64,000 nt of DNA from an uncultured Candidatus Saccharibacteria bacterium (GCA_964651115.1 CAZYXJ010000001.1:106509-170508), one strand, 5' to 3'. Numbered from the stretch's first letter, positions 39,150-60,382 are shown. Program-made: numbers and translations. Notes: a model not told the origin generated them from the sequence alone.

Positions 39150-39197
39150 TTGGGAGGGTATAATGGGTTGATAGAAAGAATATTCCGCGATAGCTCA
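39150..39197 (+). repeat. 48-bp direct repeat copy 1 (tRNA-Asn promoter plus first 14 nt of tRNA)
   Basis: ttgggagggTATAATgggttgatagaaagaatattccgcgatagctca. It is repeated at 39227-39274 with a single base difference. Confidence 0.8.
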
Positions 39198-39226
39198 TCC
39201 GCCGGCTGGCGGAGGTAGAGCGTCGC
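39184..39226 (+). pseudogene. Partial tRNA-Asn-like remnant (5-prime third, D-arm interrupted by a 16-nt palindrome)
   Basis: tccgcga-tagctca matches the tRNA acceptor and D-stem. The D-loop gtt is replaced by tccgccggctggcgga, then ggtagagcg-tcgc follows, after which the next repeat copy begins. Confidence 0.55.
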
Positions 39227-39260: not shown

Positions 39261-39333
39261 TCCGCGATAGCTCAGTTGGTAGAGCGCCTCGCTGTTAACG
39301 AGGATGTCCCAGGTTCGAGCCCTGGTCGCGGAG
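39261..39333 (+). tRNA. tRNA-Asn (anticodon GTT)
   Basis: A manual cloverleaf fits: acceptor tccgcga/tcgcgga, D-arm gctc-agttggt-agagc, anticodon arm cctcg-ctGTTaa-cgagg, variable loop atgtc, T-arm ccagg-ttcgagc-cctgg, discriminator G. There is a TATAAT 19 nt upstream. Confidence 0.85.
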
Positions 39334-40959
39334 CCTGACTGACAAAAGTGGCACATGATGCCACTTTTGTCGTATGTGGCCTGGCTTTTTAGAGGTTCGA
39401 GCGTGCTCTATTTCCTGCATAATAGCTTCTCGTGCTTTTATGAGGCTCAAAAAGAAAGAACTGTAAGAAAGCTGGATCTTTTTGTCTGAAATGGTGAGGT
39501 TCGAGCCAAGGCATGCGAGTATCGCTCTTTTGGTCTTTTCATCGCCATTTGCGTACCAAAGGTGGGCGTAGCAGGCAAAGTCAAAGGTTTGCTCTGAAAG
39601 TTCAGCCCATTGTTCTACAGCCTTATTCTTGATCTTCAACTCGTCCTCAAGAAGGCCCTTCTTTCTGAGTAGTTCAGACTTTAAGGACTGGTATTCCTGT
39701 TCGCCGATAACGGTTCGATTCTTGTTTGATGGTGCAGTAAAGTTAAGGGTCAAAGATTGCAGCTGCTGCGTTACTTCTTCACATTCCTTGTGCTTGGTCC
39801 TTATTGCGATTGAATCACTCTCAGCCTCATTCTTGCGGACCTCATGGACATGGCGAACCGCCCAGTCACGATACTCCTCTGAAATTCTTATATCTTTAAG
39901 GATCGCCCCGATCTGTAAGTGTAGTAGTTTTACTTCCACATGCTTTTCAGTACAGCCAGCGTCATATCTCTTTTTGGTGCAGTTGTAGTAAACGTAATGA
40001 TGGACGTTACCGTTCTTGCAACGCTTTACTTTGGCTTGGGCAGTGATGCTGCAACCACAGGTGGCACATTTCATAAGACCAGTAAAAGCAAACATCCTCT
40101 CTTCGTGTCGTGGGCGCGGTTGGTTGGTCCTACCCATAACCTTTTGTACCTGATCAAATTCTTCTTTGGTTACCATCGGCGCGTGCGCTCCTTTATTCCA
40201 ATTACCACTGTGGAGCGGAAACTCAAACCAGCCATAATAAAATGGGTTACCGAGGACTGCATAAATTGCTGATCGAGAAAGATGTTCACCGCCGATATTT
40301 CTACGTGGGACCGTTCGGAGATTCAACTGTTTTCTTGAAATATTCCAAATCTGGGCCATTGAATAATTGCCGGTAAGCGCAAGATCAAAGAGTCTTCGGA
40401 CCAACGGGAATCTATCAGGATCTTTTTCTAAGGTCTTGTAACCCTTTTGTTTATTGGGTGTGTTGAGATATCCAATCGGCGCACCGCTTGGCATCCAACC
40501 ATCTCTCACTTTCTTTTGCAGACCTCGCTTTACATTCACTGATAGGTCTCGAATAAACTGATTGGCCATGCCAAGTTCTACTTGCATCATGAGCACGTTG
40601 TCTGTTGGGTAATAGGTTCGACCGAAGGTAACGATTTGAGATACGGCACTCTGCTGCAACATCCAACTTATCTGGCCACCATCGACAGGATTACGGGCTA
40701 GGCGGTCCAGTTTCCAGCATAGGATGCCATTGGCTTCGCCTTTATAGATCCTCTCAAGCATTGAGTTGAATACCTTCCTACCTGGTTTCTTGGCTGATTG
40801 TGATTCTTCAAGGATATCCAGGATGTGTAAACCTTGATCCTTTGCAATCTTCAAAAGCTCGTCTTTCTGGGCATCTATGGACGCTGCCTGGCGATCTTCT
40901 GCCTCGCTGGATTTACGAGCATAGAGGAAGTATTTAATTGGTTGGTTTGTCTGGTTCAT
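39295..40959 (-). CDS. Large serine recombinase (integrase/resolvase family)
   Basis: 554 aa. The N-terminal catalytic domain has YARKSSEAEDRQAASIDAQ (nucleophile Ser region) and a recombinase domain, followed by a zinc ribbon (CATCGC...CTKKR) and a coiled-coil. The C-terminal ~25 codons read through the hairpin and tRNA 3-prime end on the opposite strand. Confidence 0.8.
   Translation of the reverse strand: MNQTNQPIKYFLYARKSSEAEDRQAASIDAQKDELLKIAKDQGLHILDILEESQSAKKPGRKVFNSMLERIYKGEANGILCWKLDRLARNPVDGGQISWMLQQSAVSQIVTFGRTYYPTDNVLMMQVELGMANQFIRDLSVNVKRGLQKKVRDGWMPSGAPIGYLNTPNKQKGYKTLEKDPDRFPLVRRLFDLALTGNYSMAQIWNISRKQLNLRTVPRRNIGGEHLSRSAIYAVLGNPFYYGWFEFPLHSGNWNKGAHAPMVTKEEFDQVQKVMGRTNQPRPRHEERMFAFTGLMKCATCGCSITAQAKVKRCKNGNVHHYVYYNCTKKRYDAGCTEKHVEVKLLHLQIGAILKDIRISEEYRDWAVRHVHEVRKNEAESDSIAIRTKHKECEEVTQQLQSLTLNFTAPSNKNRTVIGEQEYQSLKSELLRKKGLLEDELKIKNKAVEQWAELSEQTFDFACYAHLWYANGDEKTKRAILACLGSNLTISDKKIQLSYSSFFLSLIKAREAIMQEIEHARTSKKPGHIRQKWHHVPLLSVRLRDQGSNLGHPR
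39341..39371. other. Perfect 13-bp hairpin immediately 3-prime of tRNA-Asn
   Basis: gacaaaagtggca-catga-tgccacttttgtc. It is a possible tRNA terminator and/or recombination site, and lies inside the 3-prime end of the recombinase reading frame. Confidence 0.6.
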
Positions 40960-41878
40960 GGTTTATTTGTGTGTCAGGTATGTGGGTCTCATTTACTGGC
41001 TCTGCCCATTTTTCACCGTTTTTTAACGGTGGTTCCGTAGTATCTGATTGGATACTGCCGACTTCCCGTAAATTTCCCGCTATATCGGGAAAATTATCTG
41101 CGTTTTCTGTGGGTCTCACTACCTCACTTAAGGGTATCTTTCCTTCATAGGCTGTCTCAACGACATCATGCCCAGAAGGCTCTTGAATAGCAACTTGTTC
41201 CGGTAGCTGCCACTTATGCATTTTCCTCTTTAGAACATCTCCGATGCTAGTTAAAGAATTCGGGGATTTATTTATTTGGTTAGTTAGAGTATCTACGTTA
41301 ATACTACGGTTTCTACGCTTTCGGATACTACGGAGATGTATATCTGGATACTGCGCAACTGAATCTTTAAGTTTTAGACGCCCTTTAATATGGGCTATGC
41401 TTTTCCAAAAATCGACCGACTTAAAGTAGTACAGGTTCAGTGTTTTGAATCCGCTCTTTGTCTGGACCACACCAAGAATGCTGCACTCAACAAGAAGTCG
41501 GACCGCATTGGCTACATAGTTTCTGTTTTTCTCTCCGGTTAGGTCCTGGATGGTAGTCAGACTTGGCCACGCAACTTGTGTTTGCGTATTTCCATGCTTC
41601 AGAATGGCGCAGTAGACAAGTGTACAAATCTTTGGCAACTTTTCCATATAGCCATGCTCCACAAATTCGTTCTCTACGAAAAACCGAGTTGGTTTTCTCT
41701 TGCCGCGTAACAGGGACCGGTCAATCTGATTCTTCAGTTCCTCGATCTTCGCCTTGTGGTAGGCATGGGCTATCTCCACTTTGTTCTTCTTCGGGTCCAA
41801 CCACTCGAGGAAATACTTCTCGTTGTTGTTCATATTCTTTAAGCCACACCTTTTTGACAGGCCGATAGACAAGGTCAA
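40934..41878 (-). CDS. Hypothetical winged-helix DNA-binding protein (possible replication initiator)
   Basis: 314 aa with a central wHTH-like segment (WPSLTTIQDLTGEKNRNYVANAVRLLVECSILGVV). It sits downstream of the iteron-like repeat region. The start codon is uncertain, with several in-frame Met. Confidence 0.4.
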   Translation of the reverse strand: MTLSIGLSKRCGLKNMNNNEKYFLEWLDPKKNKVEIAHAYHKAKIEELKNQIDRSLLRGKRKPTRFFVENEFVEHGYMEKLPKICTLVYCAILKHGNTQTQVAWPSLTTIQDLTGEKNRNYVANAVRLLVECSILGVVQTKSGFKTLNLYYFKSVDFWKSIAHIKGRLKLKDSVAQYPDIHLRSIRKRRNRSINVDTLTNQINKSPNSLTSIGDVLKRKMHKWQLPEQVAIQEPSGHDVVETAYEGKIPLSEVVRPTENADNFPDIAGNLREVGSIQSDTTEPPLKNGEKWAEPVNETHIPDTQINHEPDKPTN

Positions 41879-41990
41879 AGACGGTTAGGAGTTTAGTTGC
41901 TTCTTCAACGAGGACTTCATCGGATGGGACCTCGCCATGTTCCTGGCGGTAAATTTCCCGATATTCGTCTAGCGCTTGTTTGCTTAGCAT
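41721..41990 (-). CDS. Hypothetical small protein
   Basis: 89 aa with a helical N-terminal 50 aa. It overlaps the next ORF substantially, so the extent is uncertain. Confidence 0.3.
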   Translation of the reverse strand: MLSKQALDEYREIYRQEHGEVPSDEVLVEEATKLLTVFDLVYRPVKKVWLKEYEQQREVFPRVVGPEEEQSGDSPCLPQGEDRGTEESD

Positions 41991-42049
41991 GATGATGTAG
42001 TTGTTTGGTTAATAATTTCGACCGTTATTGAGATCTTCCTGAAAACAGA

Positions 42050-42098
42050 AAGAGCTGAGTCCCAGTTGCAAGTGACTCAGCTCTTTCCGTGCAACTGG
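42050..42098. other. Two mutually exclusive perfect hairpins (12-bp and 9-bp stems)
   Basis: Stem A aagagctgagtc/gactcagctctt (42050-61 with 42074-85). Stem B ccagttgca/tgcaactgg (42062-70 with 42090-98). B's 5-prime arm lies in A's loop. Confidence 0.6.
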
Positions 42099-42124
42099 AA
42101 GTGTTATGTATCGTAGACCCAATT

Positions 42125-42475
42125 TCGTGCAAAATTGCGTGCATTACTTTTGGACCGTCCGATTTGTCTATTCTGAAGCCCTATTAATCCCTAACTGCAG
42201 GAATTACTTCGGACCAAAGAACTACTTAATCCTAGTGCTTAAAAAAAGCAAAACATGGTGTATTACTTTTTATGGCTAGGATTATGGGTTTATCCTAAGA
42301 GATATAAAGTTCCTAACTGTAGGAATTACTCTTACCTCTTAGAACTGTCTTAATCCTATTGTCAAAAAAGTGAAAAATGCGTTGCATTACTTTCATCTCC
42401 TTAGACAGTCATATCCTAAAATCAAATGTGGTGCATTTCGGTGTGCATTACTTTTCCTTTAGGACCAGGTAAGTA
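42125..42475. repeat. Iteron-like degenerate direct repeats (~122-bp units) in a 590-bp AT-rich intergenic region
   Basis: TG(C/T)ATTACTTT occurs at 42140, 42259, 42383 and 42444. CCTAACTG(C/T)AGGAATTACT occurs at 42189 and 42312. There are recurring TTAATCCTA and GGACC motifs. Confidence 0.65.
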
Positions 42476-42586
42476 TGAGGTCCCAATAAGTGCAAATTAG
42501 TGGGTATTGGCCGAGACAACGTAAAAAGCCCTGAATAGGCTTGGAAAAGCGTACACAGGGCAATTTAGGGGCTAATTACGGGCCTT

Positions 42587-45568
42587 TTACTTCTTCATTT
42601 TCTTAATCACATACTCGAATACGCGCTCTTGCACAAACTTCTTAAGCTCAGGACTCTGGTCTAACTTTTGATACAAGCTAAAGTGTTTATCGAGCACGCT
42701 GACGAGCTCATCTTGGAACAGCTGGTCGAATTTCAACTTCGCCGCATCCTTGCTGTTGTTCATGACTGAACCCTGAAGAACCTCGCTTTCAAGAAGTCGC
42801 TTACTTAGATCGTTGAGAATAACCCTGTCTCCATCATTGAAGTTTGTACCATACCGATCATTAACTTCTTTGATGATTCGTGACAAAGCGTCCCTTTCAT
42901 CTTCAGAAAGAGTCTTGGCATCACCACCACCCATCGGTTCGATAATACCTTCTGCATTTTCAAGCTGAAGATGCATCTCACCCTTCTTTTCTATTCTGTA
43001 TGTTTCCATGTCTATTGCTTGGAGTACTTCGTATGGCAATGGATTTTCTCTCTTTGGAAGCTTTCTAATCAAGTACTTCAAGAAGATAAATAACTTTTCT
43101 AATTGTGGATCTTCAAACGTCACAATCTGAGATATGAAAGCGTATTTTTTAAGGTAGTCGAAAGCTGTAGATTTGAAACCTTCCATTTCTTCTTCGGTAA
43201 GATTCTCATTGTTGATTCGAGAGACTACACTGTCAATGATGTGATTCAACTTGTCAGGAGTTGCTCGGGAGTAAAGTTCATCAATAAATCCATTCACTTC
43301 AAAGTCGGTGAAGAATTTAAAGCCTCGCACGTCGCGCTCAAGATCATGCAGGATATTTGGGTCAGTCGCCTCTGATAGGACCGTAGTTGTGTAATAAGGC
43401 TGGAAAGCTTCTTTGATGTCATCTGTTTGATTTACGAAATCTAGCACAAAGGTGTCGTCTTTTCCGTACGTAGTTCGGTTGAGACGAGACAAAGTCTGGA
43501 CCGCACTTACACCGCCAAGTTTCTTATCTACGTACATCACCGACAAGAGTGGCTGGTCAAATCCAGTCTGGAACTTCTCAGCTACAATCAAGAATTTATA
43601 ATCATCATTCTTAAATTCTTCAGCAGTTTGACTCTCTGGGACCTTATTCATCTGTCCTTCCGTATACTCAAGCTTAGTATCAACATCCTTAACTGTTCCC
43701 GAGAAAGCCACGAGAGCTTTATGCCCATATCCTTTTTCTTTGAGGTACTTATCAAACGCGATCTTATATCTGACCGCATGAAGTCGTGACTTGGTTACTA
43801 CCATAGCCTTTGCCTTTCCATTGATAAGTGAGGAAATCTTTTCTTCAAAGTGCTCCACCATAATAGCCACCTTCTTATCGATTGCATGTTCGTGTCGCTC
43901 GACATAGCCAACCATGAGTCGCTGGGCTTTCTTTTTATCGAACTCAGGGTCATCCTCAACTTTCTTCAAAAGCCCAAAGTAGGTTTCGTATGTTGTGTAG
44001 TTTTTGAGCACATCAAGAATAAACTTCTCTTCAATCGCTTGCTTCATTGAGTAAAGGGAGAAGGGGCCGAATTTACCAGTTAAAGGATCTTCAGTACCAA
44101 AGAGTTCAAGTGTTTTTTGCTTTGGAGTTGCAGTAAATGCAAAGAATGACAGATTTGGAGACGATACCTTTCGGGCTTTCATGCGTTCAACAATCTGATC
44201 TTCAATTGTTTTGAATAATTTCTCTTCTTCCTGGCTTTCTTTTTCAGCTTCATCGAGAGTGAGGACCTGGCGTAGATCGGCGGCTGATTCTCCTGATTGA
44301 GATGAGTGTGCCTCGTCAATAATGACAGCAAACTTTCTACCCTCAACTTTTTCTATGGCATCCACAATAACCGGAAACTTCTGCAAAGTTGTAGTGATAA
44401 TCTTTACACCCGACTCAAGGGACTCCTTGAGCTCTTTACCACCGTTTTCTACATGCTTAACCAGGCCAGTAACTTGGCTAAAGCTTTTAACTGTATCTGA
44501 AAGCTGTCTATCGAGTACACGTCGATCAGTTACAACTATCACGCCGTCAAAAACATTCTTTCCTTCAGTGTCGTGGAGCTCGGCCAATCGGTGTGCAGTC
44601 CAAGCGATAGTATTACTCTTTCCGGAACCAGCGCTGTGCTGGATTAGGTAGTTCTTACCTGAGCCATGTATCCTGGTATCCTCGACAATGCGTTTTACCG
44701 TCTCGAGCTGGTGATATCGAGGAAAGATAACTTTTTCTTCTTTACGCTTTTTACCATTCTTATCTTCCTTTTCTTCAGTCACTTCTTGTATGAAGTTTCC
44801 AATCAAATCAAAGATGCTATCTTTGGACCAGATTTCTTCCCAGAGATAGTGAGTCTTATATTTGCCCTTAGGTGCTTCAGGATTGCCTGACGACCCTTTA
44901 TTGCCCTTATTAAAGGGTAAGAAGTAGGTAGTGAGACCGGTGATACGGGTCGTCATATACGCCTGTTCTGTATCGAGCGCAAAGTGTGTGAGGCATCGCT
45001 TGAATGTTATAAGCTTCTCCTTTTGGTCGCGGTCCGTCTTGTACTGCGAAATGGCATTGATAACATTTTGGCCTGTGAACTGATTTTTGAGTTCAGAAGT
45101 AAACAGAGGGAGTCCATTCACAAAGATCACCATGTCTATGGAGTTCTCGTTTTTAGCGCTGTACTTTACCTGACGCATTACGCTCAAAATGTTCCCTGCG
45201 TAGTCTGCAAGGGTCTCAGGATTCTTGTCATTCTCTGGCTTGAAGTATGCAAGGCGGATTATGACACCTCGATCCTTTACTCCCTCCCTGAGCACACTGA
45301 GAAGACCACGAGAAAGAAGCTCTTCATCTAACCTAGCCAAGAATCTTTCAGCGACACTGTCTCCATATTGTTCAACAAGTTTTTCCCAATTATCTTTCTG
45401 GGTACTCTGAATAAACTCCAGGACCAGTTCAGTATCCATGCAGAGTTCCTTGTTGTATGAAGAATTAGAACGCTTTCGGTAGTTATGCAGACTTACAAGC
45501 TCCTGCTCGATAAATTCTTCAAATCCTGATTCTTTTGTATTGGTTTTTGTTGTCATGTTATTCGGCAT
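42587..45568 (-). CDS. hsdR: Type I restriction enzyme R subunit
   Basis: 993 aa with an N-terminal nuclease region, SF2 motor motifs (HSAGSGKS Walker A, VIIDEAHSSQ DEAH box) and a C-terminal helical domain. Confidence 0.9.
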   Translation of the reverse strand: MPNNMTTKTNTKESGFEEFIEQELVSLHNYRKRSNSSYNKELCMDTELVLEFIQSTQKDNWEKLVEQYGDSVAERFLARLDEELLSRGLLSVLREGVKDRGVIIRLAYFKPENDKNPETLADYAGNILSVMRQVKYSAKNENSIDMVIFVNGLPLFTSELKNQFTGQNVINAISQYKTDRDQKEKLITFKRCLTHFALDTEQAYMTTRITGLTTYFLPFNKGNKGSSGNPEAPKGKYKTHYLWEEIWSKDSIFDLIGNFIQEVTEEKEDKNGKKRKEEKVIFPRYHQLETVKRIVEDTRIHGSGKNYLIQHSAGSGKSNTIAWTAHRLAELHDTEGKNVFDGVIVVTDRRVLDRQLSDTVKSFSQVTGLVKHVENGGKELKESLESGVKIITTTLQKFPVIVDAIEKVEGRKFAVIIDEAHSSQSGESAADLRQVLTLDEAEKESQEEEKLFKTIEDQIVERMKARKVSSPNLSFFAFTATPKQKTLELFGTEDPLTGKFGPFSLYSMKQAIEEKFILDVLKNYTTYETYFGLLKKVEDDPEFDKKKAQRLMVGYVERHEHAIDKKVAIMVEHFEEKISSLINGKAKAMVVTKSRLHAVRYKIAFDKYLKEKGYGHKALVAFSGTVKDVDTKLEYTEGQMNKVPESQTAEEFKNDDYKFLIVAEKFQTGFDQPLLSVMYVDKKLGGVSAVQTLSRLNRTTYGKDDTFVLDFVNQTDDIKEAFQPYYTTTVLSEATDPNILHDLERDVRGFKFFTDFEVNGFIDELYSRATPDKLNHIIDSVVSRINNENLTEEEMEGFKSTAFDYLKKYAFISQIVTFEDPQLEKLFIFLKYLIRKLPKRENPLPYEVLQAIDMETYRIEKKGEMHLQLENAEGIIEPMGGGDAKTLSEDERDALSRIIKEVNDRYGTNFNDGDRVILNDLSKRLLESEVLQGSVMNNSKDAAKLKFDQLFQDELVSVLDKHFSLYQKLDQSPELKKFVQERVFEYVIKKMKK

Positions 45569-46799
45569 AAATGTTATAGATCAAATGATGTATTCTTATC
45601 GTCTTACCTGAATCCTCGGGGAGGGTGTGATCGGACACAAAGTGATTGCTACTCAATTGCTTGAACCCCGATTTATATTGCGGGTGCCTCTGGATGATCT
45701 CTGGTATCTGGGCCAATATCTTTGAAAAATCTTTATTTTTTGAAAACATAATTACTACGCCGTAATTTTGTCTCCAGGTAACATATCCCATTAATTGATC
45801 TACAGTATCTAGATATACCTTTTCTCCACCCCAATTTTTGCATTCAAAAATAAGAATTTCTCCCTTCTCAATCTTAAGGTGTATGTCAGTTTTACCTTTC
45901 TTAACAAAAGTCTCTCCCGTAGCATCTCCTTCAAAGATGCCATTCAGGGCAGAAAGGATCACATCTCGAAGTTGCTCTTCTCCTAATTGCTTATATGCCC
46001 CAGGAGTCCGCTCAAAGGTCCGGCATTGATTATCAACGAATCCTAAAATGTCTTTCAGGATCGGTTCCTCGAGCGTATACTCGGCTGGCAATTTAGGGGT
46101 TGGTTTTACAACATGGACAAACTTTTTTACGTCAACGCGAATTTTTGTGGCAGAAGGACCAGGCTTCTGCTTTAGTGGTATTTTTATCTTCTGAGTCAGC
46201 GTGCTTAGTTTTTCCTTGTCGCTTACCAACTTTTCTTTTCGTTTAGCAATTCCATCTTTTATTGTTTTCAAGAGAAGTGCGTTTCCAGATTCAATACTAG
46301 AGTTTTTCTGATTTAAACTCTCAATTAGTCTTTGGGATTTTGTGTTGATTTCATTCGCGATACTATCTTCATTCGAGTGGCCGCCATACCACTTAACGTC
46401 AAAAGAAAATGAGATCTCATTTTGACCATAGACCACTCTTTTATCAAATCCATCCATGTGGTGTACGGGACCCGATAACTTCTTTAGCCAATCTAAATTA
46501 GGGTTAGTCTCTATGGGTAAGGAAACTACTGCGGATTCATATTCAAAATCGAGATCGCCGTCATGTCGGTAAAATTCATCACGTTGATGAGCTGGTACTC
46601 GTCGGACTTCCTTTTTCATTTCATATGATAAATCAGCTGAATCAAATGTTAGTGGAACTAAACCGTATTTTTGACAATGAAAAGCTGCAAGATCATCTAT
46701 TTCCGATCCTAAGATTTGTTCATCAGATTCCCTCAAGATGTCTTGATTAAACATCTCTATTGCTTTTCTATAATAATCGTCAAAAGTTGGTCCAAACAT
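45558..46799 (-). CDS. Uncharacterised 413-aa protein embedded between hsdS and hsdR; C-terminal PD-(D/E)xK-like nuclease motif
   Basis: No Walker A is present. The C-terminus GKTDIHLKIEKGEILIFECKNWGGEKVYLD...QLMGYVTWRQNYGVVIMF fits the D...(E/D)xK restriction-endonuclease-fold pattern. It is translationally coupled, overlapping hsdR by 11 nt and starting 5 nt after hsdS. Confidence 0.5.
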   Translation of the reverse strand: MFGPTFDDYYRKAIEMFNQDILRESDEQILGSEIDDLAAFHCQKYGLVPLTFDSADLSYEMKKEVRRVPAHQRDEFYRHDGDLDFEYESAVVSLPIETNPNLDWLKKLSGPVHHMDGFDKRVVYGQNEISFSFDVKWYGGHSNEDSIANEINTKSQRLIESLNQKNSSIESGNALLLKTIKDGIAKRKEKLVSDKEKLSTLTQKIKIPLKQKPGPSATKIRVDVKKFVHVVKPTPKLPAEYTLEEPILKDILGFVDNQCRTFERTPGAYKQLGEEQLRDVILSALNGIFEGDATGETFVKKGKTDIHLKIEKGEILIFECKNWGGEKVYLDTVDQLMGYVTWRQNYGVVIMFSKNKDFSKILAQIPEIIQRHPQYKSGFKQLSSNHFVSDHTLPEDSGKTIRIHHLIYNIYAE

Positions 46800-46803
46800 A
46801 TAT

Positions 46804-48108: not shown

Positions 48109-48109
48109 A

Positions 48110-49294: not shown

Positions 49295-49298
49295 ATGT

Positions 49299-51281: not shown

Positions 51282-51289
51282 GGCGTTGG

Positions 51290-52432
51290 TTATTTATTAA
51301 AGAGATTAATGTATTCCGTTAGGTAGAAGATTCGATCTTTCTTGAGCCCCGTCTTTTCTGAGAACAAACCAAGTTTCTGAAAATCCATTGCGATCGCTGA
51401 TGCGGTCGGGAATGTTACCGACAGCATTGATTCAATATCCCTAATCGTCACAACCGGCTGTGAGAACAAGCAGCGCAAAAGTTCCTTACCAAGCTTTTGG
51501 CGCTTGATGCCCATACCTTTTTCGATTGTTGTTTCGTACTTCTTTCGGAGATCAATAATCTTTTCGAGTGTTTGTCGAGAATTCTTTGCTGTCTCCAATA
51601 CTCCAGTGAGAAAGAAACGTAGCCAGTGTTCGATGTCGTGTGTCTCGCGGACACGTGAAAGACCATCGTAATATTGCGGACGATGTTTTTCGAAGAAATC
51701 TGAAATGTAGAGAGTTGGTTTTTGAAGAATACCAAGGCTTACCAAGTGGAGCGTGATCATAAGTCGACCAATACGTCCGTTACCATCGAGGAATGGGTGG
51801 ATCGTTTCAAACTGATAGTGTGAGATAGCTATCTTGATGAGATCCGGAATATCTACTTCCTTGTTGTGCCAGAATCTTTCCAGGTCACTCAGTAACTCGC
51901 TGACCTCTTCGTAGTGAGGCGGAATGAACACTGCATCTTTGAGAGTTGCACCACCGATCCAGTTTTGGCTGCGGCGAACTTCTCCTGGCAACTTTGTATA
52001 CCCACGCACGCTTGAAAGAAGGACCTTGTGTGTATCCTTTACGAGACGCATTGAGAGCGGTAGTTTTTCAAGCTCAGCGATCGAGTAGTTAATCGCTTTG
52101 ACGTAATTCTGAACTTCTTCCCAGTCGTTTCTTTTTTCGGGATCTATTTCAAGCTCGGGCAAGAGTGCCTCATCGAGCTTTGTTTGTGTACCCTCAATTT
52201 TGCTTGAAGTGGTAGCTTCTTTTGCGATGTGCATTTTTATGAAAAAATCCACGTCAGGGACCAACTTTGAAAATGCGTTGAGCTCGCCGAGATATCTCAT
52301 GGCATCGGCAAGAAGCACATCGATGCGCTTGTCTGTCCATTCAAAATCCTTGTTCACTAAAGACGGCTGAAAGCTCTTGTAGCCATCGTGCTGCTTATGG
52401 GTTCCTGACTTGTATTTTTCTGTCATGCACAC
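51290..52432 (-). CDS. Fic/DOC family protein (putative AMPylator) with C-terminal winged helix
   Basis: 380 aa with the Fic motif [12 protein letters not shown]. It is co-oriented with hsdM and lies 8 nt upstream. Confidence 0.85.
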
Positions 52433-52587
52433 ATCCTAGCACTTTAATATATATAATGCAAATTAAAGATTTAGACCTTAACTTTTAATACAAAGACAGT
52501 AAATTAAAGAAAATAAGCCAATTTAGCCCTAAAACCAGTAAAAATAGGGTGTTTCAAGAATATTCGAGAAAATCGGTTAAAGAGGCT

Positions 52588-52932
52588 TTATCGTCCAAAT
52601 GGGATTTTATTTCGTATAAAAAAGTCTGAAACCCTTTCTTGATCTCCCTTGCAGCCCACATGCCACACCTCAATAGTCCGGGCATGATTCATCGACTTGT
52701 AGTCATAAATCGTTACGACAGTCGGCTTAGGGCCAGGCAGTCTGAAAGCCCATTCCACCTGAGTCTTCCAGTCACCCGATTTCCATGGACCATCCTTAAA
52801 CCTGTCGTGTGGCTCTCCAAACTGGGCGACAAGGTCATGGTAGGTACAAATCGCGTACCCTATAAAACCTGTGTGGTTTACTTCGTTTGGACGTGCGTTT
52901 TTATATCCTTTTTTCATGGCACGAACGAACAT
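52588..52932 (-). CDS. Hypothetical protein
   Basis: 114 aa with no recognisable motifs. Confidence 0.3.
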   Translation of the reverse strand: MFVRAMKKGYKNARPNEVNHTGFIGYAICTYHDLVAQFGEPHDRFKDGPWKSGDWKTQVEWAFRLPGPKPTVVTIYDYKSMNHARTIEVWHVGCKGDQERVSDFFIRNKIPFGR

Positions 52933-52999
52933 ACCGGAAGGTTCTGAGGAAGTCTAGCGGGACCTTTACTTTTTTGACTTCTAGGAATAATGTTGCCAC

Positions 53000-53308
53000 A
53001 TGAGCGAATTATTTATTACTGTGGTTGGAGGTCTTGTTGTCCTTATTTTAGGCGCTTGGCTTGGCCTTAGTGGTTCTACGAAAGTGCGCGTTGAAGGTGG
53101 TCACAAAGTTAAGAAAACTGGAAAACTGCTTATCCTCATCTCTGTTGCGATGATCATCGGCGGACTTTCCTGGGCGGGCAGCAATGCTCCGGCTCAAGGT
53201 GGTATTGATTTGCATATACCTGGAATGCTCTACGGAATCACTCTTGCAGGATATGGTGTGCTTCTATTAATCGTCGGTAAAGTCGTTGCATGGTGGCAAC
53301 GTCCTTAA
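53000..53308 (+). CDS. Hypothetical small membrane protein
   Basis: 102 aa with three hydrophobic helices. Confidence 0.35.
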   Translation: MSELFITVVGGLVVLILGAWLGLSGSTKVRVEGGHKVKKTGKLLILISVAMIIGGLSWAGSNAPAQGGIDLHIPGMLYGITLAGYGVLLLIVGKVVAWWQRP

Positions 53309-53538
53309 AATATATGCAATTAACTGATAAAGACCTTGAGAGTTTTCAGGCACTTTATAAAAAACATTTCAATAAAGATATTTCGCGTGCCGAAGCTCTC
53401 GCAAAAGGCACACAACTTTTGACTTTAATGAAGGCTGTATACAAACCCATGACGCAAGAACAGTTCGATGCTATACAGCAGCGAAGAAAAGATACCTTAC
53501 CAGCTTTAATTAAAAGGCTGGAGCAAGATCAACTTTGA
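53290..53538 (+). CDS. Hypothetical small helical protein
   Basis: 82 aa. Its start overlaps the upstream membrane protein gene. Confidence 0.3.
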   Translation: MVATSLKYMQLTDKDLESFQALYKKHFNKDISRAEALAKGTQLLTLMKAVYKPMTQEQFDAIQQRRKDTLPALIKRLEQDQL

Positions 53539-53963
53539 AACTCAACCTCAAAAGGATACATTCCCATTCCGCATGATCCTTGGAGTGTGCCAAGTTTGCC
53601 GCTACCAATATCAATATCTGTAGATCCTGTCTGAGGTAATAATTTTGATATGTTCATGCTTGGTATTCGGACCGATGACGAGCAGTCGAAGGTTCCCTTT
53701 GTATTGAAGCGAATGATAGTTGGTATACCTGCCTTAGCAATACTCTTGCGAGGTTGATAACCACCTTTGGCATTTATCTCTATGATTTGTTTTCCGTCTA
53801 CAATGGTGACGTTGTTTGCGTTTACTACTTGTCCGGTATCACCACCGTTTCTTGTAAACATGAAAGCACCTCCGATGAGGATTACTGCCACAATGCTTGA
53901 AATAATAGTTGCTTTCATAATTAGAATTATACTAGAAGTTAAATATTGGCGGTATGACTCCAA
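53529..53963 (-). CDS. Hypothetical membrane-anchored Cys/Met-containing protein, possibly metal-binding
   Basis: 144 aa with an N-terminal TM and a C-terminal beta region with CSSS...SCGMGMY. It is the last gene of the copper cluster. Confidence 0.35.
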   Translation of the reverse strand: MESYRQYLTSSIILIMKATIISSIVAVILIGGAFMFTRNGGDTGQVVNANNVTIVDGKQIIEINAKGGYQPRKSIAKAGIPTIIRFNTKGTFDCSSSVRIPSMNISKLLPQTGSTDIDIGSGKLGTLQGSCGMGMYPFEVEFQS

Positions 53964-54963
53964 TTACCACCAAGCTATTAATAAGATTGAAAAGCGCGAA
54001 CATGATCACGATTAGTCCTGCAGTCTTGAAGAACACTCCAGCTTTGGAACTCTTTTGAATACTGAATGAGCTGAAGCTGATGAGTGCTAAAACTGGGAGT
54101 GTACCAAGCGCAAATGCGAGCATAGTAAGTCCTCCTGTGAGGAAACTACCCGTAGTGAGCGTATAGAGCTGCATCGACTGAGTAAATCCGCATGGTAGGA
54201 AAAAGGTTGCTATACCAACAAGAAGCGGAGTGAGGGTGTGATTGAACTTGGATACACCATGAGCATGCTTAGCAATAAATTTCGGCATCGATGGTTGAAG
54301 TTTTTTTGCCCAGTGAAAAGTATCGAGAAGATTGATGCCGAGAATGAGCATGACGATGCCGATAATGAGGCTCAATATAAATGTAGCGGAAGTATTGAGT
54401 GTGAAGGCTGACCCAATCGCACCAATTATGCCACCGAGAATAAAGAACGAAGCGATTCGACCTCCATGGAACATGAGCTGGGGTCGAACCTTATCACCCT
54501 CTTTAGCAAATGTAGCCGACATCGAAAGGACCAATCCACCCACAACAGCCATGCATGTTGAAAGCGATGCGATTATACCAATCACAAATGCTGTGCCGTA
54601 GGTTACATTGCCAGCGCTAACCAGATTTACAATTCCCATTTTCTGCAGGACCACAAAGAGTACGGCAAAGACAAGTGCAATTGGGACAGCAATCTTGAAA
54701 TCTCCCCATTTGGCATTGTGCTGCTGTTTTTCTACTGAGACAGTGTAGCCATGAGGTTTAAGCGGAATTGTCAGTTCCTCTGCAATCTGTTCTGGTGTCT
54801 TATTGCCAAAGTCTCCGGTAACTTCTACCGAATGATTCTTTAGACTCGATTTTACGTGAGTTATATTTGGCAAATCGCCAAGTTCGCTTTCTGTCATGAG
54901 CACACAAGCGTTGCAGTGCATGCCGTGTACGTGAAAGGTATATTTTTGGATTTGTGTATTCAT
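53932..54963 (-). CDS. Heavy-metal-associated (HMA) domain fused to DsbD_2/TauE-like polytopic membrane protein
   Basis: 343 aa with an N-terminal GMHCNAC metal-binding motif and a ~7-TM domain with conserved intramembrane Cys (LSTCMAV, FLPCGFT). Confidence 0.55.
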   Translation of the reverse strand: MNTQIQKYTFHVHGMHCNACVLMTESELGDLPNITHVKSSLKNHSVEVTGDFGNKTPEQIAEELTIPLKPHGYTVSVEKQQHNAKWGDFKIAVPIALVFAVLFVVLQKMGIVNLVSAGNVTYGTAFVIGIIASLSTCMAVVGGLVLSMSATFAKEGDKVRPQLMFHGGRIASFFILGGIIGAIGSAFTLNTSATFILSLIIGIVMLILGINLLDTFHWAKKLQPSMPKFIAKHAHGVSKFNHTLTPLLVGIATFFLPCGFTQSMQLYTLTTGSFLTGGLTMLAFALGTLPVLALISFSSFSIQKSSKAGVFFKTAGLIVIMFALFNLINSLVVIGVIPPIFNF

Positions 54964-54968
54964 GATAA

Positions 54969-57296
54969 TTATAGTTTTTTAGCCTTAATGCGAAGTGAGT
55001 TCGACACCACGGATACCGACGACATAGCCATGGCAAATCCAGCAAAGACTGGGTTCAAGAGCCATCCAAAGACCGGATACAAAGCTCCGGCAGCGAGTGG
55101 AATGCCGACAATGTTGTAAATGAATGCCCAGAAAAGGTTCTGTTTTATTCCTCGCATGGTGATCTTTGAAAGTTTGATAGCTTTCACCAGCTTTGAAATA
55201 TCTCCGCCGAGAAGCGTGATACCGGCCGACTCTATAGCAACATCTGTTCCGGTCCCCATAGCGATACCGACATCTGCCTGCGCAAGTGCTGGAGCGTCAT
55301 TTACGCCGTCACCAGCCATTGCAACCACTCGACCTTGTGATTGCAAATCCTGAATCTTTTTCAACTTATCTTCAGGAAGCACATGTGCAACAACATCATC
55401 AATGCCAACAAGTGAGGCAATATATTTTGCGGCCTTTTCATCATCTCCAGTAAGCATAACCACCTTGATACCGAGAGCATGGAGGTTCTTTACCGCTTCC
55501 ACTGATTCCGCCTTTATTTCATCCGCCACCATGACAAAACCGAGGACCTTTTCTTTGGTAGCGAGAATAACTGGTGTCTTGCCTTGGGAAGTAAACTCAT
55601 TAAGCTTAGCAGTGTCAAAAGAAACTCTAAGGTCGCTTACTAGTTTTGTATTACCAACAAAGTATTCAGTGTCTTTAATGGATCCTTTAAGTCCCTTGCC
55701 CTGGATACCCTCAAAGTTAGAGACATCTGATACGGAGATATTTTTCTCCTGGGCATAATTTACGATCGCATGAGCAATAGGGTGTTCAGATTTTTTCTCA
55801 AGAGAAGCGAGGATCGAAACCAGCTCATCATCTTTTAAGTCAGAAAGATTTTGTATATCTACGAGAGTCGGTTTTCCTTTAGTGATCGTCCCTGTTTTAT
55901 CAACCACCACTGTATTTACCTTATGTAGTTTTTCAAGTGTTGCAGCATCCTTGATGAGAATGCCTTCTTTAGCTCCCTTACCAACTCCCACGATGATTGC
56001 TGTGGGTGTAGCGAGACCAAGGGCGCATGGACATGCGATAACCAGTATTCCCACAAACGACACAAGACCAAACGAAAGAGCTTGAGAGAAGCCAAGATAT
56101 TGCGAACCTACGATAAGCCACGTCCCGAGAGTGAGGAATGCAATCACCAGAACAATTGGCACAAAGATTGCTGAAATCTTGTCTGCCAGTGCTTGAATTG
56201 GAGCTTTGCTACCTTGAGCATCTTCAACCATCTTTATAATCTGGGCCAGGAGTGTTTCGGACCCAACCTTGGTGGCCTTGAAAGTAAATGAACCGCTTGT
56301 GTTTATGGTTCCGGATACGACACTGTCACCGATTTTCTTCTGAGCAGGCATCGGCTCTCCAGTAACCATCGACTCATCAATAAAAGAGGACCCTTCGGTG
56401 ATAACGCCATCTACAGGAATCTTTGCGCCTGGCTTAACGATAATAAGATCACCATGCTTGACCTCATTTACTGAAATCTCCACTTCCTTTCCGTCACGAA
56501 TAACCAGTGCTGTTTTTGCCTGCAGGTTAAGGAGTTTTTCTATAGCATCACCTGTCTTTATTTTCGATCGAGCTTCAAGATATTTGCCAAGGGCTATAAA
56601 AGTAATGACCACAATCGTGACATCATAGTATTGGTAGTCCACGTTTATAAATGGACGTAGAGCTTCTTCAAAAGCAGTGACAGCAAAGCTATATAAAAAT
56701 GCGGCAGTGGTTCCAATACCGATAAGCGTATCCATGTTTGCCTTGCCGTATCTAAGGAATCGATAAAAACCCATGAGGTATGGTTTACCGACAACAAACA
56801 GGATATATGTAGCTAGTATCGGAAGAAGATGGTGGATAAATTCTTTGATCGTATAGCTCATTTCAGGAACCGCCTTGTATTGAGCGAGAATATCCCATCC
56901 CATAACGAGTGCTGCGAAAATTGCAAGAGGAATGGCAGAGAATAATTTTGTTCGCATATCAGCAACTTCAGCAAGCTTCTCTTTCTTGGACTGATTGAGT
57001 CCCAGATGTGCCGCATGTTCATCTGCCGACATACCCATCGCTTCTGCTGATTGACTACCATGGTCATGTGACATTTCTTGGTCCAGAGCCAAGGAGTAGC
57101 CAAGTGGCTCTATTTTCTTTGAAAGCTCCTGCGCACTTGTTTTTGATTCATCAAAGACAACCTTCGCTTTTTCGGTCCCATAATTTACTTCAGCAGAATG
57201 GACTCCCTCAGTCTTCTTGAAGGTCTTCTCAATAATGCCAGCGCAAGAAGCGCAATGCATTCCTTTTACTCTGTATGTTTTAGTGGGATGATTCAT
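54969..57296 (-). CDS. copA: Copper-translocating P1B-type ATPase
   Basis: It has an HMA domain GMHCASCAG, the TM metal site CPC (ACPCALG), the phosphorylation site DKTGTIT and the hinge GDGVNDAPAL. The start was chosen at MNHPTKTYRVKGMHC (57296) rather than the upstream ATG at 57362, which would overlap csoR by 62 nt. Confidence 0.88.
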   Translation of the reverse strand: MNHPTKTYRVKGMHCASCAGIIEKTFKKTEGVHSAEVNYGTEKAKVVFDESKTSAQELSKKIEPLGYSLALDQEMSHDHGSQSAEAMGMSADEHAAHLGLNQSKKEKLAEVADMRTKLFSAIPLAIFAALVMGWDILAQYKAVPEMSYTIKEFIHHLLPILATYILFVVGKPYLMGFYRFLRYGKANMDTLIGIGTTAAFLYSFAVTAFEEALRPFINVDYQYYDVTIVVITFIALGKYLEARSKIKTGDAIEKLLNLQAKTALVIRDGKEVEISVNEVKHGDLIIVKPGAKIPVDGVITEGSSFIDESMVTGEPMPAQKKIGDSVVSGTINTSGSFTFKATKVGSETLLAQIIKMVEDAQGSKAPIQALADKISAIFVPIVLVIAFLTLGTWLIVGSQYLGFSQALSFGLVSFVGILVIACPCALGLATPTAIIVGVGKGAKEGILIKDAATLEKLHKVNTVVVDKTGTITKGKPTLVDIQNLSDLKDDELVSILASLEKKSEHPIAHAIVNYAQEKNISVSDVSNFEGIQGKGLKGSIKDTEYFVGNTKLVSDLRVSFDTAKLNEFTSQGKTPVILATKEKVLGFVMVADEIKAESVEAVKNLHALGIKVVMLTGDDEKAAKYIASLVGIDDVVAHVLPEDKLKKIQDLQSQGRVVAMAGDGVNDAPALAQADVGIAMGTGTDVAIESAGITLLGGDISKLVKAIKLSKITMRGIKQNLFWAFIYNIVGIPLAAGALYPVFGWLLNPVFAGFAMAMSSVSVVSNSLRIKAKKL

Positions 57297-57300
57297 ATTT

Positions 57301-57567
57301 TTATTTGCGCTTGAGCTTATAAACCTTAAGAATCTCATCGACAGCTTTCTTTTCACTGCCATGCTTCATTTGGTGAACGACATGTGTAGAAAGATGATTT
57401 TCAAGGACCAGGTTCTCAATCCCAGTGAGTGCTTCCTTAATAGCTGATGCTTGAGTAATAATATCGATACAATACTTCTCATCCTCCACCATCTTTTGGA
57501 GTCCTCTAATCTGTCCCTCAACAATTTTTAATCGGCGAATAGCTTTTGTTTTTATGTCTTGTCTCAT
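57301..57567 (-). CDS. csoR: CsoR/RcnR-family copper-sensing repressor
   Basis: 88 aa. It has a ..YCIDI...H...H.. arrangement of metal ligands and a coiled-coil fold signature. Confidence 0.85.
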   Translation of the reverse strand: MRQDIKTKAIRRLKIVEGQIRGLQKMVEDEKYCIDIITQASAIKEALTGIENLVLENHLSTHVVHQMKHGSEKKAVDEILKVYKLKRK

Positions 57568-57575
57568 ATATAGGT

Positions 57576-57604
57576 ATGATACCCCTAGGGGGTATATGAG
57601 TCAA
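57576..57604 (-). promoter_or_regulatory. csoR-copA promoter (TTGACT-17-TATCAT) with embedded CsoR operator ATACCCC-TAG-GGGGTAT (57579-57595)
   Basis: On the minus strand, -35 TTGACT and -10 TATCAT are separated by 17 nt containing a perfect 7-bp GC-rich inverted repeat. This matches known CsoR operators (ATACCC..GGGGTAT type). The ATG is ~8 nt after the -10, implying a leaderless or very short-leader mRNA. Confidence 0.7.
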
Positions 57605-57746
57605 CTGTGGATTTCTACACCAGAGCCAATTGTTCGCTCGTCGGCCGGACCAAAGGATAGATTCCATCCTTCAAATTAGGGATGTAATGGTAGTTACTTG
57701 TGGTCCTAAAATAGGTAGTTATTTCATCAACGACGCGGAGCAAAAA

Positions 57747-57775
57747 TTGACAAGTTAATCTAATTACTCTATGGT
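57747..57775 (+). promoter_or_regulatory. Near-consensus sigma70 promoter TTGACA-17-TATGGT
   Basis: Divergent from the csoR promoter, ~60 nt upstream of the ORF at 57838. Confidence 0.5.
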
Positions 57776-57837
57776 AAAAACTAGAGTTTGTTATCAGAAA
57801 AATTGAAACCCTCAAACCCAAGAAAGGGCGGTGTATT

Positions 57838-58134
57838 GTGGGTAAGTTGTCTCAACAGACAACCAGGAGCCTTGTTATAGAAGCATCTTCAGAAAATTGT
57901 TCAAAAGAACGCCGAGAAGAAATTCGCGGCGAGCTCATGAGAGCAATCGATTTCACAGAGGAAGACAGTCTCTATCGTGGACCCGTTGCCATCACGAGAG
58001 AATTGTTTCTCCAAGCAACGGAGGCGAACCCCCGACACCTTCTTGGTTTATTGCCTATGTTCCTTATGATGTGCGGTAATGGGGTCGAAGGGGAAAAGAA
58101 CCTCACCGCCAAAATCGATTGGTCTCTCGTATAA
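57838..58134 (+). CDS. Hypothetical protein
   Basis: 98 aa, preceded by a good promoter and followed by a strong terminator. Confidence 0.35.
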   Translation: MGKLSQQTTRSLVIEASSENCSKERREEIRGELMRAIDFTEEDSLYRGPVAITRELFLQATEANPRHLLGLLPMFLMMCGNGVEGEKNLTAKIDWSLV

Positions 58135-58136
58135 AG

Positions 58137-58197
58137 CCCGCTCCGGCGACGAACGGAAACCTTCCGTTTGTCGTATCGGCGGCGGGTTTTCTTTTTC
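58137..58197 (+). terminator. Rho-independent terminator
   Basis: Stem gacgaacgg/ccgtttgtc with a G-U wobble, extended by outer GC pairs, followed by ttttcttttt. Confidence 0.6.
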
Positions 58198-58288
58198 CAA
58201 AAAGTTCTCCTCCTTCGCTTAAGCTTCGGAGGACAGGTCACATCCTCAACCAGGTGGAGCCAGTTTCGAATTTTGATATACTTCGCTT

Positions 58289-58798
58289 ATGAAAATACCA
58301 TTCTTGCTTCTACTCGACGGCATGACTGGCTCAGGCAAAACGACCACTTCCGAACTTCTTGCTAAGCAGATTCCAAGATTGGCAACCATCGGCATTGATC
58401 GAGTCAAACTATTTCTTTCTGATTTTGAACGTGGTGACAGAGACAACGATATTGCCAGGGACATTATTCTATCGATGACACAAATATATTTTGATAACAA
58501 TATATCTGTTATTGTCGATCAACCCATCAGAACGCGAGAAATTAACGTGTACGAAGCTATTGCGAAAAAATATTCCGTTCCGATCTATAAAATTCAGCTT
58601 GTGACATCGCCCGAAAATGCATTTAAGCGAATAGTTAACCGAATGAAGACTTGGACCAACCCCACCTCCGAGGAGCAAGTCAAAAAGAATATCTCATTCT
58701 TTAAAAGTAAAAAAGATATGGGTTTTACTCAAATAGATACCACCGCCCTACAACCTAATCAAGTTGCCGAACAAATAATCGAATTACTTAATTCCTAA
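58289..58798 (+). CDS. P-loop NTPase / small-molecule or nucleotide kinase-like protein
   Basis: 169 aa with Walker A LLDGMTGSGKTT at the N-terminus. Its size and layout resemble AAA_33/zeta-toxin-like kinases. Confidence 0.5.
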   Translation: MKIPFLLLLDGMTGSGKTTTSELLAKQIPRLATIGIDRVKLFLSDFERGDRDNDIARDIILSMTQIYFDNNISVIVDQPIRTREINVYEAIAKKYSVPIYKIQLVTSPENAFKRIVNRMKTWTNPTSEEQVKKNISFFKSKKDMGFTQIDTTALQPNQVAEQIIELLNS

Positions 58799-58891
58799 TT
58801 TTCCCTTATTATTGACAATATATACTTTGCAGTGTATAAAGCTGAAAGCTCTTTCACACAACCAAGGCCGATAAGGCGAAAGGAGTTAGTC

Positions 58892-60370: not shown

Positions 60371-60382
60371 GGACAGCCAACG

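Follow-up and report, generated by a model that had tools for sequence, protein, structure and literature searches.

The question raised by this locus is how a long block of DNA poor in guanine and cytosine (GC) came to lie directly against the 3' end of a tRNA gene, and where that block ends. The locus is contained in a stretch of 64,000 nucleotides (the window, GCA_964651115.1 CAZYXJ010000001.1:106509-170508) recorded as belonging to an uncultured Candidatus Saccharibacteria bacterium, and the gene concerned, tRNA-Asn(GTT) at 39261-39335(+), is the sole tRNA within the 64-kb window. An earlier note on this DNA, made from the sequence alone, had described a recently acquired integrative element of ~19.5 kb (39334-58800), inserted at the tRNA by a large serine recombinase (LSR) and possibly derived from a plasmid. 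The evidence presented here indicates that the island is very probably an integrative element of 18.4 kb, which its LSR has placed at the tRNA-Asn 3' end, that the attachment site of the element (attP) lies inside the open reading frame (ORF) of the recombinase, and that the island is a mosaic. The view of a foreign, recently mobile element placed by an LSR is thus upheld, while its extent and its unity are revised. A scan with the neighbouring GH18 protein identified the host as a Patescibacteria (Paceibacterota/Parcubacteria) metagenome-assembled genome, and contigs of the Logan sample SRR14271375 and its sister sample SRR14271373 agree with the arrangement of the window wherever they overlap it.

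Extent and boundaries of the element

The GC content is 0.528 in positions 1-39260, 0.421 in 39336-57741, 0.417 in 57742-58850 and 0.529 in 58851-64000. The fall starts at the 3' end of tRNA-Asn(GTT), exactly where the low-GC foreign block had been predicted to begin, and windowed GC places the right compositional edge at ~58.85 kb. The drop had been put at ~60% to ~40%; the drop itself is real but the host level is lower than supposed, at ~53% overall and 55-58% directly upstream of the island. A further stretch of small orphan genes of intermediate GC had been thought to follow the block. This DNA (58851-61200) has a GC content of 0.511, near that of the host, and its OmdA and DUF1059 genes are found less than 6.5 kb from GH18 in a distant relative (L025) that has no LSR there. 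Their proximity to the same GH18 gene in that genome identifies 58851-61200 as host DNA.

The left boundary is set by two comparisons. The closest relative available (L003), whose GH18 protein shows 89% amino-acid identity, matches the window colinearly (83-89% nucleotide identity) through position 39335, the last base of the tRNA; beyond this point the two genomes are unrelated and L003 carries a different element. Homology between the window element and two related elements (L083 and L168) starts at 39331. On the right, homology with two further contigs ends at 57744 (L169) and 57742 (L170). An 8-bp core, CGCGGAGC, is present at 39327-39334, corresponding to tRNA positions ~67-74 (attL), and is exactly and directly repeated at 57734-57741 (attR). 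The search for att cores and flanking repeats that had been proposed gave the core at both ends; no long direct or inverted repeats bracket the island, the 8-bp core being the only repeat, and no second copy of the 3' half of the tRNA was found in the window with up to three mismatches allowed. The right-hand core, the homology breakpoints with L169 and L170, an orphan recombinase tail and the in-frame fusion that this tail permits (both described below) all coincide, and for this reason the mobile unit is 39336-57741, 18,406 bp, and does not reach 58800.

The L003 genome also bears on whether this locus is conserved. As expected of a site of recent insertion it is not, since the same tRNA in this closest relative is occupied by a different element. 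The LSR of that element has 511 amino acids (aa) and is only 28% identical to the window LSR, and its ORF likewise runs antisense into the tRNA and stops at the same TAA in the anticodon loop, its tail RLRDQGSNLGHPR being identical to that of the window enzyme. The right end of the L003 element is not visible because the contig ends within it.

The split recombinase gene

The first gene of the island (39295-40959, minus strand) encodes an LSR of 554 aa with the Pfam domains Resolvase, Recombinase and Zn_ribbon_recom. The N-terminal catalytic Resolvase domain is matched at 1.8e-20 over residues 11-154, R15 and S17 of its Arg/Ser nucleophile motif are invariant in alignments of 31 and 44 sequences, and an AlphaFold2 model of protein P0002 contains long helices at 361-408 and 420-471, in keeping with a coiled coil inserted in the zinc ribbon. 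By its domains and the logic of its att sites the enzyme is classed as a large serine integrase, with catalysis predicted from the sequence. The last 13 codons of the gene (RLRDQGSNLGHPR) are antisense to tRNA-Asn and the stop codon, TAA, was read directly from the sequence in the anticodon loop.

At the other end of the island a detached recombinase 3' end of 42 codons plus stop is present at 57615-57741 on the minus strand and includes the P arm of attP (57714-57741). It was detected by tblastn with the tail of protein P0023, which matches 57740-57624(-) with an E-value of 6e-9, and by a hidden Markov model (HMM) of the tail; neither tblastn nor the tail profile gave any other significant match in the 64 kb. 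Joining both ends of the island at the core yields an uninterrupted in-frame ORF of 583 aa. The gene had been described as a 554-aa LSR. It is indeed an LSR, but in the truncated form of a 583-aa gene split by integration. The 554-aa product keeps all Pfam domains, and the lost tail bears, beyond the P arm, a conserved peptide RTYW...FIPKLS.

These data suggest a scheme in which integration would split the LSR gene, the body at attL gaining a tRNA-antisense tail to give the 554-aa form and the last 42 codons being left at attR. Excision would then rebuild the 583-aa ORF, and we infer, with caution, that the element can still excise.

The recombinase family

The same design is found in ~100 relatives, in which integrated copies abut tRNA 3' ends and unintegrated ones keep a long tail. 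Among the 120 proteins most similar to the window LSR, two kinds of C-terminus occur. In the commoner kind the protein ends in a peptide read antisense from the 3' half of a tRNA (…LRDQGSNLGHP, …GWDSNPRPIGY), or stops 2-4 residues past a W/L-L-R/P-G core; in 115 top homologues, 42 have such DSN/GSN tails and ~46 end 2-4 residues past the core. The minority kind is 25-45 residues longer and carries a conserved D-V-R-T…F-I-P-K/N-L peptide. This pattern is as expected if attP lies in the LSR ORF and integration exchanges the C-terminus.

The window LSR belongs to a 90%-identity cluster of 12 members that are identical through …HHVPLLSVRL (SVRL = AGG CTC) and then diverge: at least seven distinct tails are antisense to a tRNA or short, and two are long and of the attP form. 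Recombinases of this cluster are found in more than one host and at more than one tRNA, and the codon at which they break is always the same. The two long-tailed copies (L083 and L168) lie on contigs of 9-11 kb that share the backbone genes and are free of host genes, and the existence of such plasmid-like, unintegrated relatives agrees with the suggested plasmid origin. A short-tailed copy (L084) is found on a 222-kb contig, adjoining a tRNA with a group I intron. This tRNA (L084 11705-12031), the target of a recombinase 97% identical to that of the window, contains an intron of Rfam family RF00028 (54 bits), which explains why it is missed by ARAGORN; several other loci with DSN tails also lack an ARAGORN call and may be similar cases.

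A scan of metagenome contigs with the LSR alignment gave 80 loci, in 40 of which the LSR ORF ends in or abuts an antisense tRNA. The tRNA targeted most often is Asn, and Ser, His, Gly, Trp, Glu, Gln, Arg, Val and Tyr tRNAs are also used; the frame in which the ORF enters the tRNA is constant (28/28). Long tails with the D-V-R-T motif occur in ~20 loci. A profile built from long tails revealed orphan tails in 13 of the integrated loci; each lies on the strand of the LSR and upstream of it, and they delimit elements of 2.2-18.4 kb. Nine of nine pairs joined by position, as well as L159, give in-frame full-length ORFs of 546-583 aa. Extra orphan tail fragments were also seen near full-length or truncated LSR genes at three loci (L152 4600-4746; L115 13174-13263; L132 3009-3146) and may reflect the insertion of related elements in tandem or inside one another.

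Attachment sites and motifs within the recombinase gene

The attB site consists of a B arm, formed by the T-arm and the acceptor 3' strand of the tRNA, and a B' arm of A/T-rich DNA directly downstream of the tRNA. At this locus the B arm belongs to tRNA-Asn(GTT), which was called by ARAGORN and Rfam (69.7 bits) and is identical in L003 to 39335. The B' flank, AAAAATTGACA... (57742-57775, plus strand), shares its A/T-richness with the B' arms found at other loci and at the same time forms a TTGACA-17-TATGGT promoter for the gene of a 98-aa protein. Across the family the cores shared by attL and attR are 4-10 bp long and place the crossover within tRNA positions ~71-74. In the window the crossover falls within GAGC at 39331-39334, and since these are the last nucleotides of the tRNA the gene stays intact after insertion. 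The predicted attB and attP junctions are ...CCCTGGTCGCGGAGCAAAAATTGACAAG and ...ATCAACGACGCGGAGCCTGACTGACAAAAG, respectively.

The P arm mimics the tRNA. It copies the antisense tRNA 3' end in register for ~16 bp and has a 5-bp insertion before a T-loop-like motif, TTAGAACC. When arm positions are numbered from the antisense of tRNA position 74, TCGAACC occupies 17-23 in the B arm, while the P arm matches the tRNA to ~position 16 (GGA at 13-15) and has TAGAACC at 22-28. The distance from a motif further within the ORF (box 1, below) is 82-83 nt to the tRNA T-loop in attL and 87-88 nt to the P-arm motif in 18 attP forms, and the shift between attP and attB is 5 bp in both sub-lineages. In the structure of the LI integrase bound to attP, the ZD motif, which is the sequence bound by the zinc-ribbon domain of the recombinase, lies at half-site positions 16-24 in attP and 11-19 in attB (Rutherford et al. 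2013, PMC3783163). The 5-bp shift of the P arm matches this published rule for LSR attP and attB sites (PMC3783163). Candidate ZD motifs, TTCGAACC / TTAGAACC, would be present in the B arm, the P arm, box 1 and a further motif, box 0.

Box 1 is a T-loop-like 8-mer, CTCGAACC (39394-39401, minus strand), placed 82-83 nt upstream of the antisense tRNA T-loop. Its spacing is fixed in 37 of 40 integrated loci, and it is read in two frames (LEP or A/V-R-T). Box 0, GGCTCGAACCTC (39496-39507, minus strand), encodes a conserved GSNL; its codons are TCG AAC in 60/60 loci, TCG making up 12% of the Ser codons in the same genes. The constant DNA spacing of a motif read in two frames, together with the use of the rare TCG codon, indicates that it is as DNA that the three T-loop-like boxes, arranged as direct repeats, are conserved. 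Two such boxes (TCGAACC) beyond the tRNA T-loop, inside the LSR ORF and at fixed DNA spacing, are seen in 54-60 related loci.

The LSR ORF also contains a hairpin with a 13-bp stem and A-tract/T-tract flanks (39340-39372). Hairpins of varying sequence are found at the same place, between box 1 and the core, in 54 family members, with a median minimum free energy of -15 kcal/mol and a median z of -2.1, and in at least 29 of the 54 a T-run is present in the tRNA sense. The window hairpin was not called as a terminator by a simple terminator scan. An RNAalifold consensus of the hairpins contained 0 pairs because their register varies, and per-sequence folding was used for this reason. The hairpin supplied by the element is probably a replacement terminator for the tRNA.

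Mosaic origin of the island

The two parts of the island have different closest relatives. Positions 39311-42577, comprising the LSR, a gene for an HTH_36 protein, an 89-aa ORF and a set of repeats, are 91% identical to L084 (89-91% to L084/L168), this similarity ending at the hsdR stop codon. At the other end a module at 53288-57744 is ~82% identical at the nucleotide level to, and colinear with, L169, in which the order is [LSR C-terminal fragment + same tail]-csoR-copA-…-DsbD_2-cupredoxin and the similarity ends at the core. The window tail shares only ~31% identity with the cognate tail of its LSR lineage; its identity is 78-100% with tails that are joined to different LSR bodies, in particular C-termini of the L003 type (P0137, P0138). 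Judged by these similarities the island is a mosaic to which two lineages of recombinase element contributed, with the attL of lineage B and the attR of lineage A; the element is integrative, as had been proposed, but is not a single one. The B-type part comprises the LSR, the HTH_36 gene, the iteron-like repeat region, a type I restriction-modification (R-M) system, PDC-S54 and SoFic. The A-type part comprises an 82-aa ORF, the copper module and the tail, and it is the A-type recombinase clade that occupies the same tRNA in L003. No remnant of an A-type recombinase or of a B-type tail was found in the window.

As to the order of events, we infer that the mosaic would have arisen either through successive insertions at the same tRNA followed by internal deletion or through hybrid excision and reinsertion. 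The L169 contig, from another metagenome, retains at 9553-9903 only the last ~75 codons of an A-type recombinase with an intact tail (an attP-form junction) among host-like flanking genes, and represents in decayed form the element lineage from which the right part of the island came. These findings offer a mechanism for the shuffling of modules among elements that compete for one tRNA.

Contrary evidence and alternative explanations

Several observations weigh against the account given above. No empty site (attB) or circular junction (attP) was found for this exact element, the search of related genomes for an empty site that had been suggested having returned none. The predicted empty-site 24-mer, GGTCGCGGAGCAAAAATTGACAAG, had 0 matches in the metagenomes of the Joint Genome Institute (JGI), and a search through the contexts of the 98-aa gene gave three distant homologues only, none adjoining tRNA-Asn. 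Terminal overlap is absent in L083 and L168, as in other contigs, so a circular form is not proven, and some long-tailed members are found on long contigs (L138, 276 kb), which means that a long tail is not always the mark of an episome. The resident B-type LSR faces a non-cognate P arm at attR, one that departs from the P arm of L083 at many positions, and the island may consequently be unable to excise. In an AlphaFold model of the attP-form protein, residues 521-584 have confidence (pLDDT) values of 40-54, giving no structural support for a functional tail, and at this low confidence tail docking cannot be inferred from the model. Lastly, 57742-58850 is as poor in GC as the element itself, and composition alone thus cannot mark 57741 as the boundary.

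This last stretch of 1.1 kb, which lies outside the recombinase-defined unit, holds the 98-aa ORF (57838-58134, plus strand) and a gene for an AAA_33/zeta-toxin-like P-loop kinase (58289-58798, plus strand; Pfam; GC ~0.38-0.41). It could be argued that both are cargo of one 19.5-kb element extending over 39334-58800, with its right att site near 58.8 kb. The GC content of the stretch (0.417) is indistinguishable from 0.421, the jump to 0.53 comes at ~58850, and the kinase has no homologue in the fetched loci except on a contig of the same species (L087, 100% identical). This extended element is nevertheless very unlikely, as no tail-, P-arm- or tRNA-like sequence is present near 58.8 kb, whereas 57741-57744 is where the orphan tail and the 8-bp core meet two independent breaks in homology. 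Furthermore, the flank from 57742 resembles the A/T-rich B' arms of the family and holds a complete promoter for the next gene, and the 98-aa gene has few homologues, which are located among core genes in other places, for example beside core ribosomal genes on another Patescibacteria contig.

The stretch may instead be an older acquisition. One form of this idea sees in it what is left of an even earlier insertion at this tRNA, and the locus would then have been built up in three or more acquisitions, the most recent lying closest to the tRNA. Its foreign-like GC is consistent with this, the poorly specified B' arm of the family makes repeated use of one tRNA plausible, the island is already a mosaic of two lineages, and L003 has yet another element at this tRNA. 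Against it stand the lack of any recombinase remnant, tail or att-like sequence in the 1.1 kb or at its end, and the shortness of the stretch, which is insufficient for composition to be decisive; such a history is a minor possibility that we do not favour. The opposite doubt, that the LSR is not the integrase of the island at all, being a resident resolvase or invertase or a domesticated gene beside the tRNA while the block came by another route, might draw on the unobserved excised form, on the non-cognate P arm at attR, and on the best NCBIfam matches of the LSR (XisF and CcrB), which are far under the cut-offs, as are its CcrA/B/C scores. It is the most improbable of these explanations given that LSRs of the 90%-identity cluster break at the same codon at different tRNAs and in different hosts, that two attP-form copies lie on short contigs without host genes, that 13 split-gene pairs occur across the family, and that L003 is colinear to the last tRNA base and different after it. 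An integrative element of 39336-57741, mobilised by its own LSR, therefore remains the explanation that we prefer.

Relation to known systems and significance

The window LSR has the same Resolvase, Recombinase and zinc-ribbon/coiled-coil architecture as the large serine integrases of phages and other mobile elements (phiC31, Bxb1, A118/LI, SPbeta SprA), which also use short att sites with a core of a few bp and have the ZD motif 5 bp further out in attP than in attB (PMC3783163). Unlike these, the window family targets tRNA 3' ends with the T-arm as a half-site, carries attP in its own coding sequence together with two further T-loop-like boxes and a hairpin, and resides in Patescibacteria. 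No recombination directionality factor was identified for the window element. Greater similarity in design is seen with the archaeal 'suicidal' integrases of the SSV1/pTN3/pT26-2 type, in which the att site likewise lies inside the integrase gene, tRNAs are targeted, the gene is split and chimeric integrase genes arise between related elements (PMC8371274). Those enzymes are tyrosine recombinases of the Phage_integr_3 fold, however, whereas the window enzyme is a serine recombinase in a bacterial genome. The archaeal split parts Int(N) from a catalytic Int(C) and is inactivating, whereas the window family loses 25-45 codons and keeps its catalytic and DNA-binding domains together.

In mycobacteriophage BPs and its relatives attP lies in the 3' part of an ORF and integration changes the C-terminus of the product (PMC4557955), but in this integration-dependent immunity system it is the repressor gene that is split, and a tyrosine recombinase serves as the integrase. 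In BPs the consequence, loss of a degradation tag, has been demonstrated; for the window family a consequence is only hypothesised. The SCCmec/Ccr cassettes share with the island a serine recombinase, cargo placed at the 3' end of a conserved gene without inactivating it, and tandem or mosaic build-up at one site, but their target is rlmH (orfX) and their Ccr genes are internal and unsplit, as opposed to a tRNA target and a split LSR. Classical tRNA-linked islands are similarly inserted at the tRNA 3' end, preserve the tRNA and carry defence or metal-resistance cargo of foreign GC, but employ tyrosine integrases and are flanked by direct repeats of 15-50 bp copied from the tRNA, in place of a serine recombinase and an 8-bp repeat.

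The island as such is therefore ordinary, with defence and metal-resistance cargo at a tRNA, and it is the integration module that is unusual, combining a tRNA 3'-end target with an attP in its own gene. An att site in the gene of the recombinase itself has previously been reported only for archaeal tyrosine integrases, and a 2021 review held self-splitting 'suicidal' integrases to be exclusive to archaea (PMC8371274); the family described here contradicts that statement. A literature search on tRNA-targeting or self-splitting serine recombinases and on integrative elements of the candidate phyla radiation (Patescibacteria) gave nothing relevant, most subscription journals being outside the search, and a large LSR survey of 2022 does not mention tRNA. 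What emerges is a large serine-integrase family, so far mostly from Patescibacteria, that uses tRNA 3' ends as attB, has attP in the LSR ORF and possesses a tRNA-mimicking P arm. It provides a natural, many-fold replicated confirmation of the 5-bp shift of the ZD motif that had been proposed from one crystal structure, and a set of candidate integrases whose target is conserved and can be predicted. Horizontal transfer of defence and copper-resistance genes is documented as well, among the ultra-small Patescibacteria, whose mobile elements are poorly known.

It is doubtful, though conceivable, that loss of the tail on integration alters the behaviour of the recombinase. If it did, the full-length enzyme would integrate and the truncated, tRNA-tailed enzyme would act differently, and the RTYW...FIPKLS peptide, present only in the circular element, would constitute a built-in switch of directionality or stability. 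Rather unlikely, in our judgement, is the wider proposal that this LSR family is a bacterial serine counterpart of the archaeal 'suicidal' integrases with a circular-only tail switch, accessory ZD boxes and a broad tRNA reach. Under this proposal the two extra T-loop-like boxes in the ORF would be accessory binding sites for the zinc-ribbon domain of the recombinase, and such enzymes could be aimed at the tRNA genes of many genomes, because the B arm is the near-universal tRNA T-arm.

Cargo and backbone genes

Gene content was determined with profile HMMs (Pfam, PADLOC and NCBIfam), and the genes listed in the earlier note were recovered by Pfam and PADLOC, including the predicted defence and copper cargo. 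Next to the LSR gene lies that of the 314-aa HTH_36 protein (40934-41878, minus strand; Pfam HTH_36 2.3e-8), a conserved partner whose homologues adjoin the recombinase in 11 loci. It is followed by the 89-aa backbone ORF (41721-41990, minus strand), 92-94% identical in L084 and L168, and by the iteron-like region at 42100-42460, in which a repeat search of the sequence found four copies of GYRYATTACTTT, two of CCTAACTGYAGGAATTACT and two of CTTAATCCTA and which is 89-91% identical in L084 and L168. A winged helix-turn-helix Rep-like gene beside an iteron-like region had been described here. The HTH_36 gene and the repeats are present, but the protein has no match to any Rep family or NCBIfam model, HTH_36 being its only domain, and the repeats are dispersed and not tandem. 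It is possible that the HTH_36 protein is a replication or regulatory protein, and together with the repeats its gene may support episomal replication.

The type I R-M system is complete, with HsdR, HsdM and HsdS together at 42587-51281 on the minus strand and recognised by Pfam and PADLOC. HsdR (42587-45568; Pfam, PADLOC REase_I) is followed by PDC-S54 (45558-46799; PADLOC 8e-83), HsdS (46804-48108; Pfam, PADLOC Specificity_I), a DUF2130 protein (48110-49294; Pfam) and HsdM (49299-51281; PADLOC MTase_I 1.7e-262), all on the minus strand. A candidate defence gene, PDC-S54, and the DUF2130 gene are thus interleaved in the R-M operon, and this arrangement suggests a composite defence operon. Beyond it are a Fic-domain protein of the SoFic type (51290-52432, minus strand; Pfam Fic_N and Fic, PADLOC SoFic 1.5e-114), a small ORF of 114 aa (52588-52932, minus strand) and one of 102 aa (53000-53308, plus strand) that is 56% identical to an ORF beside Fic in L084 and marks the end of the B-type backbone.

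The A-type module starts with the 82-aa ORF (53290-53538, plus strand). On the minus strand it then contains genes for a cupredoxin (53529-53963; Pfam), an HMA-DsbD_2 protein (53932-54963; Pfam), CopA (54969-57362; Pfam E1-E2_ATPase, HMA and Hydrolase) and CsoR (57301-57567; Pfam Trns_repr_metal 1.4e-25). With both the CsoR repressor and a P1B-type ATPase with an HMA domain present, this is a CsoR-regulated copper export module. Pfam scans of the 16 main ORFs (at least 82 aa) in 39336-57741 revealed no relaxase, coupling protein or type IV secretion component, and no tyrosine integrase was found among the ORFs scanned by Pfam.

Features of the flanking host DNA

Upstream of tRNA-Asn, at 39150-39226 (L003 11528-11572), there is a 48-nt duplicate of the tRNA promoter and tRNA nucleotides 1-14, which runs on into a degenerate 5' half-tRNA; the D-loop of this half-tRNA contains an inserted GC hairpin, and the sequence breaks off in the anticodon loop. 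Between the window and L003 the 43 nt of the half-tRNA show 100% identity despite the divergence of the surrounding spacer, and the half-tRNA folds at -21.6 kcal/mol (z -2.3). Its interpretation as the scar of an integration in the anticodon loop was rejected, as it is conserved in L003 and lies outside the att site. Two differences between the window and L003 were also observed further upstream. Positions 31442-31724 (~280 bp) are unaligned in L003 and represent a second, small host indel. The larger one, at 28320-29141 (~820 bp, GC ~0.46), is absent from L003, contains a 226-aa ORF (28395-29075) with a Y1_Tnp (IS200-like transposase) domain, and is probably a small, separate insertion.

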